NCBI RefSeq assembly: GCF_000092465.1
Contig: NC_014205.1
Location: forward strand, 270,001-302,000
Direction: 5' to 3'
DNA length: 32,000 nucleotides
From: Staphylothermus hellenicus DSM 12710
GTDB lineage: Archaea > Thermoproteota > Thermoprotei_A > Sulfolobales > Desulfurococcaceae
In this document: piece after piece, positions 2-16,014 of the stretch
Numbering within the stretch: position 1 is the stretch's first letter
Layout of the letters: each line of letters starts with the position of its first letter
Notes under the pieces: generated by a model
Told to the model about the DNA's origin: nothing
Databases searched by the model: none
The model's input: only the letters and a program-made list of their open reading frames with translations
Position numbers and translations under genes: made by a program

Positions 2-325
2 GTGATATATGTCGATCCAAGGAATACTTCAAGACAATGCCCAATACACAGGGCACCAATATTATACGATAACGGGTCTAGGATTGGAAAATGCAGTATC
101 GGTGGAGAATTCTGGCACAGAGACGTAGTCGCATGCTATAATATTCTCTCCCGCACCCTAGGGGTTGATGGGAGCTATGCTCCAAAACCCCTAGGGATCA
201 CCGTAGATGGGAGGCCCGTGCCGTTGGCCTCGACAGCCGCCCATGACCCTATAGTCCTTGATAGAGGACTATGGGAGAGGTGGAAGTCCCCACCGAAGAT
301 ACATAAATATAGAATGACACGGTAG
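2..325 (+). CDS. tnpB: IS200/IS605-family TnpB (OrfB) nuclease, C-terminal fragment; the 5' part lies outside the window
   Basis: The frame is open from the window edge. YVDPRNTSRQCPIH...GKC...H (YTS block followed by a C/H zinc-finger cluster) is followed by HRDVVACYNIL (RuvC-III Asp motif), the canonical TnpB C-terminal order. Confidence 0.75.
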   Translation: MIYVDPRNTSRQCPIHRAPILYDNGSRIGKCSIGGEFWHRDVVACYNILSRTLGVDGSYAPKPLGITVDGRPVPLASTAAHDPIVLDRGLWERWKSPPKIHKYRMTR

Positions 326-11471: not shown

Positions 11472-12179
11472 GTGCCTAGGATCACAGTGATAAGGTTATT
11501 GAAATATCGTAAATGGACAGAAGAATTAGGTTATGATAGAGAATGGATTATACAGAAAAAACAAGCTAGAACATATGATATTCTACAAACACTTTTCTCC
11601 AAGAAAAATGGGTTCGTGGTTCCCCTAAGATATGATCACTACTTAGCTCTTAGCAATGGAATAGATAAGGAGACTCACCAAGAAATACTTACCGAAATAG
11701 ATCCTGTAACGCCTTATGGAGTAAAAATTGTTTCAATCGCTCATAAATATCCTGCAATAGGACAATTAATAGCATCTCGCCTATTAGAGGAGAAGCCAGG
11801 CAAGATCATATATTTAGATGGTGTGGAAGATGAAAATGTAGTTGTACATATTGATTTCAACAGTGTTACCATGTATACTGAGATGACGAGTATTTTTGAA
11901 TCATATATGAGGATCCTTGAACTATATGATATAGTTACAAAATATGTGTTTCAACTTGGCGGTATAACTAGTTATCTTGGCGGGGACAATATGTTGGCTG
12001 TAGTTCCCGAAAATAAATTGGATGAACTACTTGAACTAATACCTTCTTATCTCAAAGCAGGTGTTGGATTATCATATGTGCCGAGAAAAGCACTTCTTCT
12101 AGCCTCAAAAGCATTAACGATTATTAGAAGCGGCAAGGTAGATAAGAGATTTCTTATTCTCCGAGACGAAGACGTATGA
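11472..12179 (+). CDS. arfA: GTP cyclohydrolase III (FAPy-forming, archaeal riboflavin/F420 route)
   Basis: ITVIRLLKYRKWTE..., LALSNGIDKETHQEI, HIDFNSVT and YLGGDNMLAV are colinear with remembered MJ0145 blocks (ITVIQIDNYGPWT, IAITNGIDLITHKRI, HIDINNIT, FIGGDNFMA). GTG start. Confidence 0.85.
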   Translation: MPRITVIRLLKYRKWTEELGYDREWIIQKKQARTYDILQTLFSKKNGFVVPLRYDHYLALSNGIDKETHQEILTEIDPVTPYGVKIVSIAHKYPAIGQLIASRLLEEKPGKIIYLDGVEDENVVVHIDFNSVTMYTEMTSIFESYMRILELYDIVTKYVFQLGGITSYLGGDNMLAVVPENKLDELLELIPSYLKAGVGLSYVPRKALLLASKALTIIRSGKVDKRFLILRDEDV

Positions 12180-13425
12180 ATTCATATAATAATAAAGTTG
12201 CTGAGATGATTGGGCCTAAATAATATATATATGCTAAAGCCTCGGCTTCTCCGCCGCCACTATGTGGTGGGTTGAAGTAGCTTGTTGATAAATTACTTGT
12301 GTTTGTTGAAAACAAGGTATTTGATGCTGTTGATGTGTTTTTGCCTATCGAATACTTTGTCGTTATAGTTGTCGTAGTTGTTGTAGTTGATGTATGGTTT
12401 GGTTTGGTTAAGATACTTAAATATATGGTTTTAAATAATGTAGTGCTTTTACCAGATGGATCTACTGCTGTAATATTTAAGATCAAGGTTTTATTTGTCT
12501 CATTTATTATTCCGGAAGAAGATACATTATATATGGATATCGTAGTAGAACCATTTGTTTTGAAACCTGCTAGATAAATTTTAAATGGTTCTTGTTCTTT
12601 TTCTTTTGGATAATAATATTTTACGTATAGCCTAGTATCTTCCGTATTCACTCCGTCGCATATGTTAATTGTAAGTAGTATTTTATAGAAATATTCATGG
12701 TTTATTTTTCGAATAGAATATGTTGATCTTTCAACACTAACTATTGGATTATGTGTATCAACTATTATTTTCTTTTCCTCGATAATTTCCTGATTAAATC
12801 TTATAGTTATGCTGTGTTTTTCCATCGTGTTAAGTTGTAGAACATAGTTTTGCAACGTATTATTATTGAGGAGGAGATAATGATTATCTATTACGCCATT
12901 GATCAATATTTGTGTTGTTGCTGTATTATTTTCTAAAAGCATAGTTTGATTGTTTCCAAATACATAGAGGAGCTTATATGTAATACTAGCGGGTTCCAAG
13001 TATTCATTGTATATATTAATGCTTGTTTTAAATATTGTATAATTTAATGTTATTGTTATGTTTTCGTTATCAACATTGATTTTTCCACTATATATTTCGC
13101 CGTAGATCCAATAATATACTTTTATATATACAGTTTTAGTGATTGCATTGTATTCCGTGGTTATCGTTGCAACGCCGTCATTATTGGTTTTGCCAGTGTA
13201 TTCATGTGTAGAATAAATAGTTGGCTTAACAATTATTTCGGCATTGGGTAGTGGTTTATTATCTAGTAAACTTAGCTTTATGTGAAGTGTGATCACATCT
13301 TCCATGTTCCAATATAATGCGAAGCTTATAATAGGCGAATTCATAATTATGAGCATAAATATCATTATGACCGATATTAAGTTTTTAAAGATCGATGTTC
13401 TATGATCAGCATTGTTGATCAGCAT
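12154..13425 (-). CDS. predicted surface-anchored glycoprotein (N-terminal TM/signal, Thr-rich stalk, C-terminal TM anchor)
   Basis: Hydrophobic N-terminus (ISVIMIFMLIIMNSPIISFAL), many N-x-S/T sequons, a TSTTTTTTTITT stalk and a C-terminal hydrophobic helix (LAYIYYLGPIISATLLLYEFI) followed by RLRLGE. No family was recognised. Confidence 0.6.
   Translation of the reverse strand: MLINNADHRTSIFKNLISVIMIFMLIIMNSPIISFALYWNMEDVITLHIKLSLLDNKPLPNAEIIVKPTIYSTHEYTGKTNNDGVATITTEYNAITKTVYIKVYYWIYGEIYSGKINVDNENITITLNYTIFKTSINIYNEYLEPASITYKLLYVFGNNQTMLLENNTATTQILINGVIDNHYLLLNNNTLQNYVLQLNTMEKHSITIRFNQEIIEEKKIIVDTHNPIVSVERSTYSIRKINHEYFYKILLTINICDGVNTEDTRLYVKYYYPKEKEQEPFKIYLAGFKTNGSTTISIYNVSSSGIINETNKTLILNITAVDPSGKSTTLFKTIYLSILTKPNHTSTTTTTTTITTKYSIGKNTSTASNTLFSTNTSNLSTSYFNPPHSGGGEAEALAYIYYLGPIISATLLLYEFIRLRLGE
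12355..12390 (-). repeat. low-complexity ACN-codon run encoding the poly-Thr stalk
   Basis: The plus strand reads gtcgttatagttgtcgtagttgttgtagttgatgta. Its reverse translation gives the spurious poly-Val ORF 12299-12577. Confidence 0.8.
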
Positions 13426-13618: not shown

Positions 13619-14044
13619 TCTCATATGTGAGGTGAGGGGGATCTATCCATGATTAAAGGTGGATGGATCATTGTATTCATTACTGCAAGCGATCCAGGTG
13701 AAGCTGAGAGGATTGCTGAAGGGATTGTTAAGGAAAAACTAGGTGCTTGTGTAAACATCGTGGATAAGATTCATAGTATTTACTGGTGGCAAGGCAAAAT
13801 TGAGAAGGGAGACGAGTCTTTATTGATTATAAAGACTAGGGGTTCAGCCTACGTAGGTTTTGGTAGACCCACATAGGCTTTCATCCCCCATATCTTATCC
13901 CCTTGCCCCCGACTACGGGAGCCCTGCATCAGGATCTAAGGACTCCCCTCATCGAAGACAGGTTCATCTAAAAGGCTCATCCCCCTCGCCTTCTCATCAG
14001 GGTCGATTTTGGAGTTGATTAGTGTGTATAGGGTTCTCCCCAAG

Positions 14045-14167
14045 ATGAGGATGACAATACCGAAGGAAGTAGCTGAGAAAATGGGGTTGAAGGTAGGAGA
14101 TAAGTTAGTAGTGTACTTTGACAACAAGAAGCAGAGGATGGTTGTTGAGAAGTGGAGGAAAGGGTGA
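14045..14167 (+). CDS. SpoVT/AbrB-fold (MazE/VapB-like) DNA-binding mini-protein, 40 aa
   Basis: Manual translation gives MRMTIPKEVAEKMGLKVGDKLVVYFDNKKQRMVVEKWRKG. The IPKEvaeklGLKvGDklvv core is the AbrB looped-hinge pattern. The stop TGA at 14165-14167 overlaps GTG 14164 of the next frame. Confidence 0.7.
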   Translation: MRMTIPKEVAEKMGLKVGDKLVVYFDNKKQRMVVEKWRKG

Positions 14168-15165
14168 CTATTAGAGGGAGGCTGATTCTGAACTCAATTG
14201 TTGATAAGGCATGGTTGCTTCTACTTATGAGAAATTTCAGGGATGCTGTGGAGTATGCACATAATTTATTAAGGAAGAATGTTAGTGAGAATGATATAGT
14301 GAAGCTACTGGCATCGAGAATCCTAAGCAACGCTCACTACTCCTACTCTGCACTGCAGAGAGCAAAGATGTATAGACAACAACCCTATCTTAAACTGAAA
14401 AAACCTCAACTATTCTCTATTGGGAAGAGGAATGAGAAGGGAAATAGAAATATCAGGTTCTTATCAACTGATAGGGTTCAGATAAAAATCCCATCAGCAA
14501 CTGGAAAGCATAGATGGATCACGGCTGGGGTAAGGTTTGGAAGAAAATATATTTCAACCATAAAGAAGTTGATAAACAATTCAATCCCATATGGAGCTGG
14601 AGTCTATATAAACTCTGGTCTTGAGCTACATGTGAATGTCCCATTGGAATTGTATACTGAGAAGCTGAAGGTGGGGAACAAGAATACGAAAAACGATAAA
14701 GGGTATATAGCATCATTCGATTTCAACTCTGACAGGATCTGCATGGTTATAGTTAGTAGAGAAGGCAGGATCCTCGATGTCAAAAACAAACATTTCCCAG
14801 AAGTTACTTCACCTGGCTATTCTGGAAGGAAGGCAAGAGATAAAAGGATGAAAGCACTAGCAGAGCTTGTGGATTATGCATACCACCACAACGTCACCGA
14901 CTATGTTGCAGAGATTTTGAGCAGACCAAAGAAAAAGAGTAGAAGTAAAACGGGTAACAGGAAGTCCTCAAGATGGGCTTTAAGAGAATTCGTAACACAT
15001 CTGAAAACATTAGTCGCAAGATATGGTGGAAAACCGCACTTCATAAACCCTGCCTATACATCTGTAGATGCAATACCGCTTAGCAAACAACTAGGACTCG
15101 ATATTCACACAACATCAGCCTACCTCCTCGCAATAAGATTTATCAAAGGCTATGAAGAATTATAA
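14152..15165 (+). CDS. compact TnpB-like RuvC-fold protein lacking the zinc-finger cluster
   Basis: FDFNSDRICMVIV (RuvC-I-like Asp), DYVAEILSR (RuvC-II-like Glu), NRKSSRWALREFVTHLKTLVARYGGKPHFINPAYTS (TnpB W..f..l...G..v..v.P.YTS block) and GLDIHTTSAYLLAIR (RuvC-III-like Asp). There are no Cys or His pairs between YTS and RuvC-III. The start is either GTG 14152 or GTG 14164. Confidence 0.72.
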   Translation: MEERVTIRGRLILNSIVDKAWLLLLMRNFRDAVEYAHNLLRKNVSENDIVKLLASRILSNAHYSYSALQRAKMYRQQPYLKLKKPQLFSIGKRNEKGNRNIRFLSTDRVQIKIPSATGKHRWITAGVRFGRKYISTIKKLINNSIPYGAGVYINSGLELHVNVPLELYTEKLKVGNKNTKNDKGYIASFDFNSDRICMVIVSREGRILDVKNKHFPEVTSPGYSGRKARDKRMKALAELVDYAYHHNVTDYVAEILSRPKKKSRSKTGNRKSSRWALREFVTHLKTLVARYGGKPHFINPAYTSVDAIPLSKQLGLDIHTTSAYLLAIRFIKGYEEL

Positions 15166-15170
15166 ATACT

Positions 15171-15195
15171 TACCAAACTTGTTACAGTTTCGGTA
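15171..15195 (+). other. subterminal hairpin at the right end of the insertion
   Basis: TACCAAACT (15171-15179), loop TGTTAC, then AGTTTCGGTA (15186-15195). This is a 9-bp stem with one bulged C, 2 nt from the element boundary, like the subterminal hairpins of IS200/IS605 ends. Confidence 0.55.
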
Positions 15196-15353
15196 GGCTT
15201 GATAAGTTCAGTAAACTTGTTGAATATGTTAGGGAAAAACATAGTTATGAAGTGCCAGAAATAGTTGCTGTCCCATTAATTATTGGTTTTGCAAAATACT
15301 TGGATTGGCTAGATGAAGTAGTAAATAGTTCAAAATAGGTTTTAATTTCCTAT

Positions 15354-15662
15354 TTATTTCTCTTCCTCGCCTTCTATAATCTCTAGTTTTTCCCATGCCT
15401 TATTCCTTCTAGCAAACCCGATATAGATATTTATTATTCTTAGGCTCTGCTTTATTTCCTCGTCGAATCTGCATTCACTATTTATTCTTGTCCCATTAAA
15501 TAGTTCCACAACTATTTTCTTAAACCTCTCCTTTTCACAGTTCTCAGTCCAAGCCTTTACCGCGAATCCATTCATAGCTAGTGCTTCGAGAACTCTAGGT
15601 GGGCAATCATGTCTGCACACTATGTATTGTTCGATTGATTTATGGGTATCCGTGTTTTTCAC
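15354..15662 (-). CDS. hypothetical protein (102 aa, acidic C-terminus)
   Basis: Clean ORF, 7 nt downstream of the 114-aa ORF on the same strand. No family was recognised. Contains CRHDCPP plus two further Cys. Confidence 0.45.
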   Translation of the reverse strand: MKNTDTHKSIEQYIVCRHDCPPRVLEALAMNGFAVKAWTENCEKERFKKIVVELFNGTRINSECRFDEEIKQSLRIINIYIGFARRNKAWEKLEIIEGEEEK

Positions 15663-15669
15663 TATTAGA

Positions 15670-16014
15670 TCACCTTATTCTCTTAATGATTATACCTGCT
15701 TCTCCAGCCTTGGCCACAGTGTCTTTATCAATTACTGGGCCTGAACCATACAGTATAATTATGGGTTTTACTTTGTATTTATCAGCTATTTCTTTTGCTT
15801 TACTAATAATTTCTTCGCCTATCTTCTTCTTCTGCCACAGAACTATGCCGGCATATCTTACTCCATGCTTGGAAGCAGTGAAATCAACTCCTTTTAGTGG
15901 AGGGTTAATTGTTACATTGAATCCGGCAGCAACATATCTAGCAGCTACTTTTCCCACAACATTCTTTTTTCGAAGCAGTTTATTTATTATAAACATTCTA
16001 CGTGCAGTCGTCAT
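15670..16014 (-). CDS. hypothetical protein, possibly a restriction-endonuclease-like (Hjc-like) fold with non-canonical catalytic positions
   Basis: The strong SD-like GGAGAGGGGGAG lies upstream of the ATG. The layout GKVAARYVAAGFNV...GVDFTA...GIVLWQKK...KPIIILYG resembles the Hjc order (ERN..GF.V...PDIIA...IEMK) but lacks the first Glu and the ExK Glu. The fold assignment is tentative. Confidence 0.5.
   Translation of the reverse strand: MTTARRMFIINKLLRKKNVVGKVAARYVAAGFNVTINPPLKGVDFTASKHGVRYAGIVLWQKKKIGEEIISKAKEIADKYKVKPIIILYGSGPVIDKDTVAKAGEAGIIIKRIR

Follow-up and report, generated by a model that had tools for sequence, protein, structure and literature searches.

A mobile insertion in cutA of Staphylothermus hellenicus that unites a small AbrB-fold gene, a zinc-finger-less TnpB-like gene and a candidate guide RNA gene

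Introduction

Why should a gene for a small DNA-binding protein directly precede, and overlap, the gene of a TnpB-like protein that has no zinc finger? Such a pair lies in a stretch of 32,000 nucleotides of Staphylothermus hellenicus DSM 12710 (positions 270,001 to 302,000 of contig NC_014205.1, forward strand), here called the window; all coordinates below count from its first letter. We find that the two genes belong to a three-part unit, a discrete insertion of 1357 bp that splits the cutA gene, and that the third part is a structured RNA gene read in the opposite direction. The initial annotation of this DNA, made from the sequence alone, had drawn attention to the gene pair; it overlooked both the upstream RNA gene and the loss of a promoter segment from this copy.

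That annotation held the pairing to be undescribed, yet it is already present in the work of Altae-Tran et al. (2023, PNAS, PMC10691335). These authors defined a clade of TnpBs, RIIIr-4, without the C4 zinc finger and with the RuvC-III Asp changed to His, and an archaeal “RHH/MazE-TnpB” group in which a small AbrB/MazE or ribbon-helix-helix (RHH) gene precedes tnpB. From gene content, patchy distribution and AlphaFold co-folding they proposed a toxin-antitoxin (TA) system with TnpB as the toxin, an idea that a 2026 review still cites as a proposal only; they termed the clade non-mobile, and suggested a guide RNA in its long 3′ untranslated region. Judged by its match to that feature description, the window pair is an S. 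hellenicus member of the RHH/MazE-TnpB group. The initial annotation had also foreseen that it might prove to be a characterised insertion sequence (IS) family with a named accessory gene: described and named the group is, experimentally characterised it is not.

The insertion in cutA

The element and the two parts of the gene that it interrupts are laid out as follows.

13649–13840 (+): 5′ part of cutA, codons 1–64, matching CutA1 profile positions 1–62 and ending with the target triplet AGG (13838–13840)
13841–15197 (+): inserted element, 1357 bp including one AGG, with left terminus GGTTCAGCCTACGTAGG and right terminus ACAGTTTCGGTAGG
13840–14009 (−): structured non-coding RNA, a candidate guide (omega-like) RNA of ∼170 nt with its 3′ end at the left terminus
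13846–13879 (−): subterminal hairpin of that RNA, AGCCTACGTAGG ... CCCACATAGGCT (helix 5; 9 of 10 pairs with compensatory changes)
13904–13960 (−): central long hairpin, the part corresponding to Sso133 (helices 2 and 3)
14006–14011: junction of a deletion of ∼50 nt found in this copy only, from alignments to L001, L002, L003, L005, L007, L012 and L085
14009–14167 (+): mini-gene of the AbrB/MazE fold, 52 codons with a TTG start, delimited by Pfam and NCBIfam matches, the conserved N-terminus MELIGVYRVLPK and pN/pS
14152–15165 (+): gene for a TnpB-family RuvC protein (putative nuclease) without zinc finger, 337 codons from GTG 14152 or 333 from GTG 14164
15166–15197 (+): right end, 32 nt of 3′ untranslated sequence ending in ACAGTTTCGGTAGG (consensus AACnGTTnnnnnAGG, then C, in class A)
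15198–15338 (+): 3′ part of cutA (LDKFSKLVEYV...SSK, stop), matching CutA1 profile positions 60–98

The 75-codon open reading frame (ORF) at 13649–13876 matches Pfam CutA1 positions 1–62, and the frame that resumes at 15198 matches positions 60–98. Joining codon 64 to 15198 restores a CutA of 110 aa; its full-length identity to the S. marinus F1 CutA, also of 110 aa, is 89%, while the annotated S. hellenicus CutA is truncated to 75 aa. The S. marinus cutA locus has the same neighbouring genes and an empty site, TATAAAGACG-AGG-CTTGATAAGTTC (AAAGACG AGG CTTGAT); the window reads TATAAAGACT-AGG/GGTTCAGCC at the left junction and CAGTTTCGGT-AGG/CTTGATAAGTTC at the right, the slash marking the boundary. 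The comparison of the filled window site with the empty S. marinus site thus defines a precise 1357-bp insertion into AGGC. AGG flanks the insertion on both sides, either as a 3-bp duplication or through terminal identity.

For comparison we assembled a census of 80 genomic loci (L001–L080), all of them archaeal, from Desulfurococcales, Thermofilaceae, Sulfolobales, Methanomethylicales, Thermococci, Archaeoglobaceae, and Baldr-, Odin-, Bathy- and Nezha-archaeota. When related loci are aligned pairwise, similarity is confined to discrete units of 1.4–1.54 kb and the flanks are unrelated. Genomes may carry several diverged copies, and one Sulfolobaceae genome holds two that are 87% identical. 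The closest relative, P0002 (73% identity), comes from a metagenome contig of 1406 nt (L085) that is exactly one element, running from AG/GGTTCC.. to ..CACTAGG/C, and numerous other homologue contigs are 1.2–1.45 kb long, the assembler output expected for multi-copy repeats. The module is a precise mobile insertion that splits cutA at AGGC, and the initial annotation was right to regard the pair as transposon-borne.

It was also right that the element holds no Y1/HUH TnpA: we found no transposase gene within the window element or in any of the 80 related units, and no Y1 TnpA in the 80 loci inspected. IMG/VR, PLSDB and INPHARED contained no relatives of the element, and carriage by a virus or plasmid was rejected on that ground. 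None of the PADLOC defence-system models matched.

Two classes of termini can be distinguished. In class A the left end is AG/GGTTC..CCTACGTAGG and the right end AACnGTTnnnnnAGG/C; in class B the left flank and end read AC/CGTTC and the right end GTTTCTnCCC/. Across the 80 loci the classes co-vary at both ends and follow the TnpB tree, not the type of small protein, a pattern that hints at rules of end-to-end or end-to-target recognition. The conserved 3′ region that follows tnpB measures only ∼30–45 nt, with similarity between copies stopping 30–80 nt past the stop codon; we looked for a long 3′ guide region and did not find one.

The small gene and the TnpB-like gene

The small ORF had been described in the initial annotation as a 40-codon frame missed by the ORF track. 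The frame at 14045–14167 (ATG 14045) does exist, and it matches Pfam MazE_antitoxin/SpoVT-AbrB (PF04014; E = 4e-9, 36.7 bits, cut-off 24.7) as well as NCBIfam TIGR01439 (AbrB), in agreement with the fold then assigned to it. Its length has to be revised, as the gene extends to 52 codons from TTG 14009, and in that form it is listed by the ORF tool. The six closest relatives (L001, L002, L003, L005, L007 and L012) have an ORF of 51–52 codons with an ATG start, reading MELIGVYRVLPKMRMTIPKEV (N-terminus MELIGVYRVLPK), an orthologous small ORF with ATG is present in L085 too, and the window carries the same twelve additional codons from its TTG. The 52-codon version matches PF04014 at E = 7e-9 and TIGR01439 at E = 6e-9, with the AbrB domain at residues 14–48 (Pfam) or 9–38 (TIGR01439) of the 52-aa protein. 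The product is a DNA-binding domain only, without the toxin-neutralising C-terminal extension; it also matches PHROG 4681, ‘antitoxin’, at E = 7.5e-4.

Against the six relatives, pN/pS over the whole ORF is 0.06–0.32, with synonymous sites near saturation, and on this substitution pattern the mini-gene is a real gene under purifying selection. One could still suppose a chance ORF in front of a tnpB that alone is real, given how short the frame is and that the window copy has a TTG start and no recognisable promoter. This reading is effectively refuted by the orthologous ATG-started ORFs of 51–52 codons in the six relatives and L085, the pN/pS values, a Pfam match above the cut-off, and the census, in which a small ORF occupies the same position in nearly all eligible loci with an intact N-terminus.

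The TGA of the mini-gene (14165–14167) overlaps GTG 14164, the NCBI-annotated start of tnpB, in the GTGA configuration that the initial annotation pointed out; GTG 14152 is in the same frame. Because L002 and L085 have an ATG exactly at the position of GTG 14152, the latter is the likelier start, giving an overlap of 16 nt. Since the genes overlap with either start, translational coupling of AbrB and TnpB, raised as a possibility from the outset, is plausible.

The large ORF is 100% identical to an S. hellenicus protein of 333 aa annotated as ‘transposase, IS605 OrfB family’, whose numbering we use for the key residues D186, E250 and D313/H315. It contains the motifs FDFNSD, YVAEIL, NPAYTS and GLDIHTTSAY. 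Among 36 aligned members, E250 and H315 are invariant, D186, D190 and D313 are nearly so, and the RuvC-III motif takes the form GLDxHT(A/T)SAY; in all 36, 13 residues lead from NPAYTS to D313 with no Cys/His cluster between them. The TnpB motif order and the absent cluster thus stand as first annotated. The RuvC-III-like Asp recognised at the time is present as the nearly invariant Asp313, but the invariant residue is His315. His315 probably occupies the canonical RuvC-III position, two residues after Asp313, an equivalence that comes by motif alignment only and agrees with the published change of Asp to His.

Profile searches of both proteins and a structure prediction of the larger one had been suggested in the initial annotation. 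For the large protein, no match was found in the local Pfam copy, and the NCBIfam matches were sub-threshold (guided_TnpB, E = 2e-7; the TnpB N-terminal domain TIGR01765; TIGR01766). A precomputed Pfam domain is available for 105 of 107 database homologues, and all 105 carry PF27229 (SSO2105_N). An AlphaFold2 model built from the alignment of 36 homologues has a mean pLDDT of 90.7, and its best Foldseek matches against the PDB are Cas12f (7l48, E = 1e-7) and ISDra2 TnpB (8exa, E = 3.8e-5), other matches being AsCas12f, ISFba1 TnpB, Fanzor2 and RuvC resolvases. A profile search of PDB sequences retrieved Cas12X/Cas12X2 over the RuvC-II region at E about 1e-6 (Cas12X, E = 8e-7). According to this model, the large protein is a RuvC protein of the TnpB/Cas12f fold without a zinc finger, much as had been proposed.

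Exchange of the small gene among relatives

An ORF of 45–60 codons abuts or overlaps tnpB in nearly all eligible loci, that is, those with an intact N-terminus and enough upstream sequence. A census of this kind had been put forward as a check on whether the mini-ORF always accompanies its TnpB clade and whether the overlap is conserved. The small ORF does accompany it; its fold varies, and in subfamilies T3 and T3b the small gene and tnpB do not overlap. Two of the small-ORF types are AbrB (Pfam-significant), two are RHH-like (one through a weak RHH_6 match, E = 0.0065), and two have no Pfam match; the sister proteins measure 45–55 aa. On the TnpB tree the AbrB and RHH types are interleaved: the AbrB-type L003 and L005 nest among RHH-type elements and have class B termini like theirs, while the RHH-type L004 is sister to the AbrB clade of the window. 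Class A termini are accompanied by AbrB1, AbrB1b or RHH2b, and class B termini by RHH2, T3 or AbrB1. As read from this tree, unrelated small-protein folds have been swapped several times.

The divergent RNA gene

A G+C-rich segment of 165 nt, conserved in relatives, separates the left terminus from the mini-gene, and it folds far better as minus-strand than as plus-strand RNA (−58.5 versus −33.8 kcal/mol). The window RNA alone reaches −77.5 kcal/mol (z = −4.3). RNAalifold gives seven AbrB-type sequences, taken on the minus strand, a common structure of −54 kcal/mol in which 16 of 41 pairs show compensatory changes. Several U–G pairs are invariant on the minus strand, where the plus strand would have A–C mismatches; these pairs and the poorer plus-strand fold ruled out both an RNA read from the plus strand and a hairpin formed by the DNA alone.

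A covariance model built from seven loci (R1) scores 157.6 bits over its full length on the window. R1 and one unfiltered search together place full-length matches on the minus strand, immediately upstream of the small gene, in 58 of 61 eligible loci, with all subfamilies represented. Over 52 homologues, 95.5% of cells are paired compared to about 45% in slid controls, and double changes occur at 36 of the 41 pairs (545 double-change cells compared to 160 in shuffles). The last position of R1 lies 2–3 nt from the boundary of inter-copy similarity and from the cutA junction. RNA score and TnpB identity are correlated (Spearman 0.82, n = 49), and since the one falls with the other, RNA and nuclease have been inherited together. 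Taken with the arrangement in known elements, this RNA is probably the nuclease's guide, with a scaffold of ∼160 nt that ends at the transposon end and the flank beyond serving as guide. The subterminal hairpin forms the RNA's last stem, or may be a transposition hairpin.

Part of this RNA already has an Rfam entry, RF02814 (Sso133, “Sulfolobus sRNA133”). In the window the Rfam model scores 20 bits at 13902–13978 (E = 0.88; gathering score 44), and it passes the gathering score, on the same strand, in four Sulfolobales/Desulfurococcus loci (L059, 92.7 bits; L068, 80.9; L067, 69.5; L078, 57.9), to which the window RNA is homologous via R1. We found no literature on SSO2105 or on the Sulfolobus RNA Sso133/sRNA133, no paper that connects Sso133 with TnpB, and none describing a divergent guide-like RNA layout. 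The transposon-derived RNA-257 of S. solfataricus was set aside as belonging to a different element, ISC1904, and a published study of circular omega-RNAs does not cover this family.

Some further features of the RNA were recorded along the way. The window RNA has four GAUGA motifs (GAUGAG three times, GAUGAA once) that are invariant in the seven-sequence alignment; a K-turn reading of them was rejected, the internal loop being symmetric (3 × 3) and not of the asymmetric K-turn layout. Extra RNA copies occur in L052 (1870–2069, +), L050 (1102–1264, +), L064 (2874–3008, −) and L037 (4768–4902, −). Those of L050 and L052 adjoin neither a small gene nor tnpB, and the L052 copy shares 86% identity with the RNA gene of L051 over 210 nt. 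These copies may be solo RNA genes, derivatives resembling miniature inverted-repeat transposable elements, or remnants. In L043 (Nitrososphaeria), a weak R1 match at 1198–1359 (+; 19 bits, E = 0.004) lies in sense and overlaps the 3′ end of tnpB; it could represent a canonical omega-RNA-like arrangement in one lineage, or chance. Two independent Logan assemblies of S. hellenicus reads (L081 and L082) both start at window position 13944, in the loop of the long hairpin, which may mean that the left ∼100 nt are repeated elsewhere in the genome, or may be an effect of the hairpin on assembly.

A putative promoter region and its loss from the window copy

All subfamilies have a TATA-like box 25–35 nt upstream of the ATG of the small gene, and many loci have a second, inverted box facing the RNA gene (e.g. 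cTTATATAc..gTATATAAGt). These boxes suggest a bidirectional promoter region of 45–65 nt between the RNA gene and the small gene. The ∼50-nt deletion cost the window copy its intergenic segment, including the two TATA-like boxes, and replaced the ATG of the mini-gene by TTG. An assembly artefact was excluded, since two independent read-set assemblies have the identical sequence. Both ORFs and the RNA of the window copy are otherwise intact. Going by the lost boxes, this copy is probably silent or dependent on read-through from the co-oriented cutA.

Neighbouring genes

At the left border of the window, positions 2–325 (+) encode the C-terminus of a canonical TnpB (RQCPIH..C..H.RDVVACYNIL, with a C..H..C..H pattern and a match to Pfam Cas12f1-like_TNB); the zinc-finger residues are there, as first annotated. 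This fragment is cut by the window edge and marks a second, ordinary IS605-family element. On the far side of cutA from its 3′ part, the minus strand holds an ORF of 423 aa (12154–13425) with a threonine run (TTTTTTTITT), numerous N-x-T/S sites and a hydrophobic segment at the C-terminus; from these traits it looks like a secreted or anchored glycoprotein. Its S. marinus counterpart has 422 aa, lies beside cutA, and has no Pfam match. Downstream of cutA follow two minus-strand ORFs of 102 and 114 aa (15354–15662 and 15670–16014), without Pfam matches and in the same order in S. marinus.

Proposed mechanism and alternatives

What we observed directly are the parts and their insertion, the fact that the three-part unit is conserved, the structure of the RNA and its co-inheritance with the nuclease gene. 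For their function we propose an element resembling OMEGA systems, where the RNA serves TnpB as guide and AbrB acts as the repressor of a bidirectional promoter, a model to which we give an even chance. The element of ∼1.36 kb, inserted at AGGC in cutA, would comprise an RNA gene, the 52-codon abrB and the overlapping tnpB. The RNA would act as an omega-like guide whose transcription runs out over the terminus, the guide segment itself coming from flanking DNA, as in IS200/IS605 elements. An AbrB dimer would be the autorepressor of the short TATA-box promoter between the RNA gene and the abrB-tnpB operon, in the manner of Arc (see below), keeping both low, and AbrB and TnpB would be translated together from a single mRNA that is leaderless or has a short leader. 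The S. hellenicus copy, lacking the ∼50-nt promoter segment, would be silent or read through from cutA. Movement would conventionally be put down to a Y1 transposase that acts in trans on the subterminal hairpin.

Several points weigh against this proposal. The only expression record for the group is Rfam Sso133, which covers the central hairpin only, and both the extension of the RNA into the flank and its binding by TnpB are inferred. With the RuvC-III change from Asp to His, as aligned, nuclease activity is putative. The element encodes no transposase that would account for its movement, and the promoter that is central to the model is the very segment missing from the window copy. The genes are ordered as in type II TA systems, and in the AlphaFold co-fold of Altae-Tran et al. 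(PMC10691335) the RHH protein is in contact with TnpB, where it would obstruct the guide-target duplex, which favours a direct inhibitor or antitoxin. The 52-sequence alignment behind the covariation counts was fitted to R1 and is biased towards the structure, a bias from which the seven-sequence RNAalifold result is free, and the TnpB tree is a neighbour-joining tree with no support values.

In the TA reading of Altae-Tran et al., TnpB, with or without its RNA, is the toxin, and a labile AbrB or RHH antitoxin binds it, blocks the guide-target duplex and autoregulates. A small DNA-binding gene in first place, overlapping a larger one, is indeed the type II layout; AbrB/MazE and RHH are classic antitoxin folds, with the PHROG 4681 match pointing the same way; the archaeal distribution is patchy; and the published co-fold shows the required contact, the idea being still current as a proposal. 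We nonetheless consider it unlikely. The small proteins, at 45–55 aa, lack the toxin-binding extension of type II antitoxins, and being bare DNA-binding domains they argue for a repressor over an antitoxin. So do the repeated swaps of unrelated folds on closely related TnpBs, which would be easier for a promoter repressor than for a co-evolved inhibitor, and the nearest experimentally studied analogue, Arc, which represses a bidirectional promoter. The module behaves as a discrete insertion element whose termini and target site are conserved, the RNA gene of 58 of the 61 eligible loci is superfluous to it, and PADLOC gave no match. Less probable again is that the TnpB ribonucleoprotein contains AbrB or RHH as a subunit with a structural or specificity role, e.g. 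binding DNA or the target-adjacent motif, or providing a dimerisation that replaces the zinc finger. The strict co-occurrence of the small gene with the zinc-finger-less clade, overlapping frames suggestive of stoichiometric co-production, and a published dimer-of-dimers co-fold with a DNA-facing surface would suit such a subunit, but AbrB and RHH proteins, although non-homologous, fill one and the same position and are swapped from one TnpB lineage to another, the target-site bases (AG ... C) do not depend on the type of small protein, and the T3 and T3b genes do not overlap.

That the module is a domesticated, immobile RNA-guided regulator or host module (of the TldR type, exapted TnpBs) that stands beside cutA by chance strikes us as very improbable. 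Altae-Tran et al. classed the clade as non-mobile, the window has a single copy with P0001 at one S. hellenicus locus, and loss of the promoter would perhaps be tolerated if the function were exerted in trans. Facing these points are the precise filled and empty pair with S. marinus and the annotated, truncated 75-aa CutA, the several diverged copies per genome with unrelated flanks, the frequency of element-sized contigs, and the conservation of the putative catalytic residues.

Returning to the OMEGA-like model, a more far-reaching version of it, which we hold tentatively and at somewhat below even chances, is that the divergent RNA, with Sso133 as its core, is the true guide of RIIIr-4/MazE-TnpB. 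The units of 1.35–1.55 kb would then be complete and currently mobile OMEGA elements of inverted layout, the RNA reading out of one end and the repressor-nuclease operon running towards the other, with a defined target (AGGC in class A) and with AbrB or RHH as a swappable promoter repressor, not an antitoxin. As a bolder extension, given the absence of a transposase gene from 80 units, the TnpB-RNA complex might itself take part in moving the element.

The published picture of the group, with a non-mobile clade, a 3′ guide RNA and a TA function, does not fit the window element and its relatives. For a hyperthermophilic candidate RNA-guided nuclease of ∼335 aa without a zinc finger, the element offers concrete parts: a scaffold, the position predicted for the guide and a candidate for the target-adjacent motif. 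It is also a natural test case for whether transposon-borne micro-repressors, exemplified by Arc in bacteria, are general to archaeal TnpB elements, and it supplies a likely function for the orphan Rfam family Sso133.

Comparison with known systems

The nearest described system is the RHH/MazE-TnpB (RIIIr-4) group itself, with which the window element shares the archaeal host, the zinc-finger-less TnpB, the invariant RuvC-III His and the upstream small gene, and whose two small-gene types both occur among the sister loci. It departs from the published account in being a discrete insertion with an empty counterpart, where the group was termed non-mobile, and in having ∼30–45 nt of 3′ sequence and a divergent upstream RNA in place of a long 3′ guide region. 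Mobility with a defined target, the short 3′ end, the divergent RNA and the swapped small gene appear, from our locus comparisons, to go beyond the 2023 description.

With TnpB-only (IS1341-type) OMEGA elements of the IS200/IS605 family it has in common a RuvC protein of the TnpB fold, an RNA of ∼160 nt with its 3′ end at the transposon end, a subterminal hairpin, a short conserved target motif and the lack of long inverted repeats. Here, though, the RNA is divergent and upstream, at the other terminus, and does not overlap the 3′ end of tnpB; and the element differs further in having no zinc finger, a D-x-H RuvC-III motif, an additional small DNA-binding gene, and AGG on both sides. Sso133 matches the central long hairpin of the element RNA on the same strand, but its Rfam model, at 73 nt, covers less than half of the ∼166-nt conserved RNA.

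Type II TA systems such as MazEF, VapBC and PrlF-YhaV likewise place a small AbrB-fold gene first with an overlapping gene downstream, and the Pfam family is named for MazE; the window element differs in that its small protein has no toxin-binding tail, its partner lies outside the known toxin families, and the whole is a mobile unit with an RNA gene. Closer in proposed function is Arc, an RHH protein that binds and represses the bidirectional promoter of bacterial IS605 transposons (Moon et al. 2026, bioRxiv 10.64898/2026.09.24.754181). The AbrB-fold protein described here differs from Arc in its fold, its archaeal host with TATA-box promoters, the absence of tnpA, and a gene co-oriented with and overlapping tnpB instead of tnpA, and its DNA binding is predicted. 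Yet both are micro-proteins with a dimeric DNA-binding fold, encoded in a TnpB-bearing element beside a bidirectional promoter region, and sister archaeal elements carry RHH versions in the same slot.

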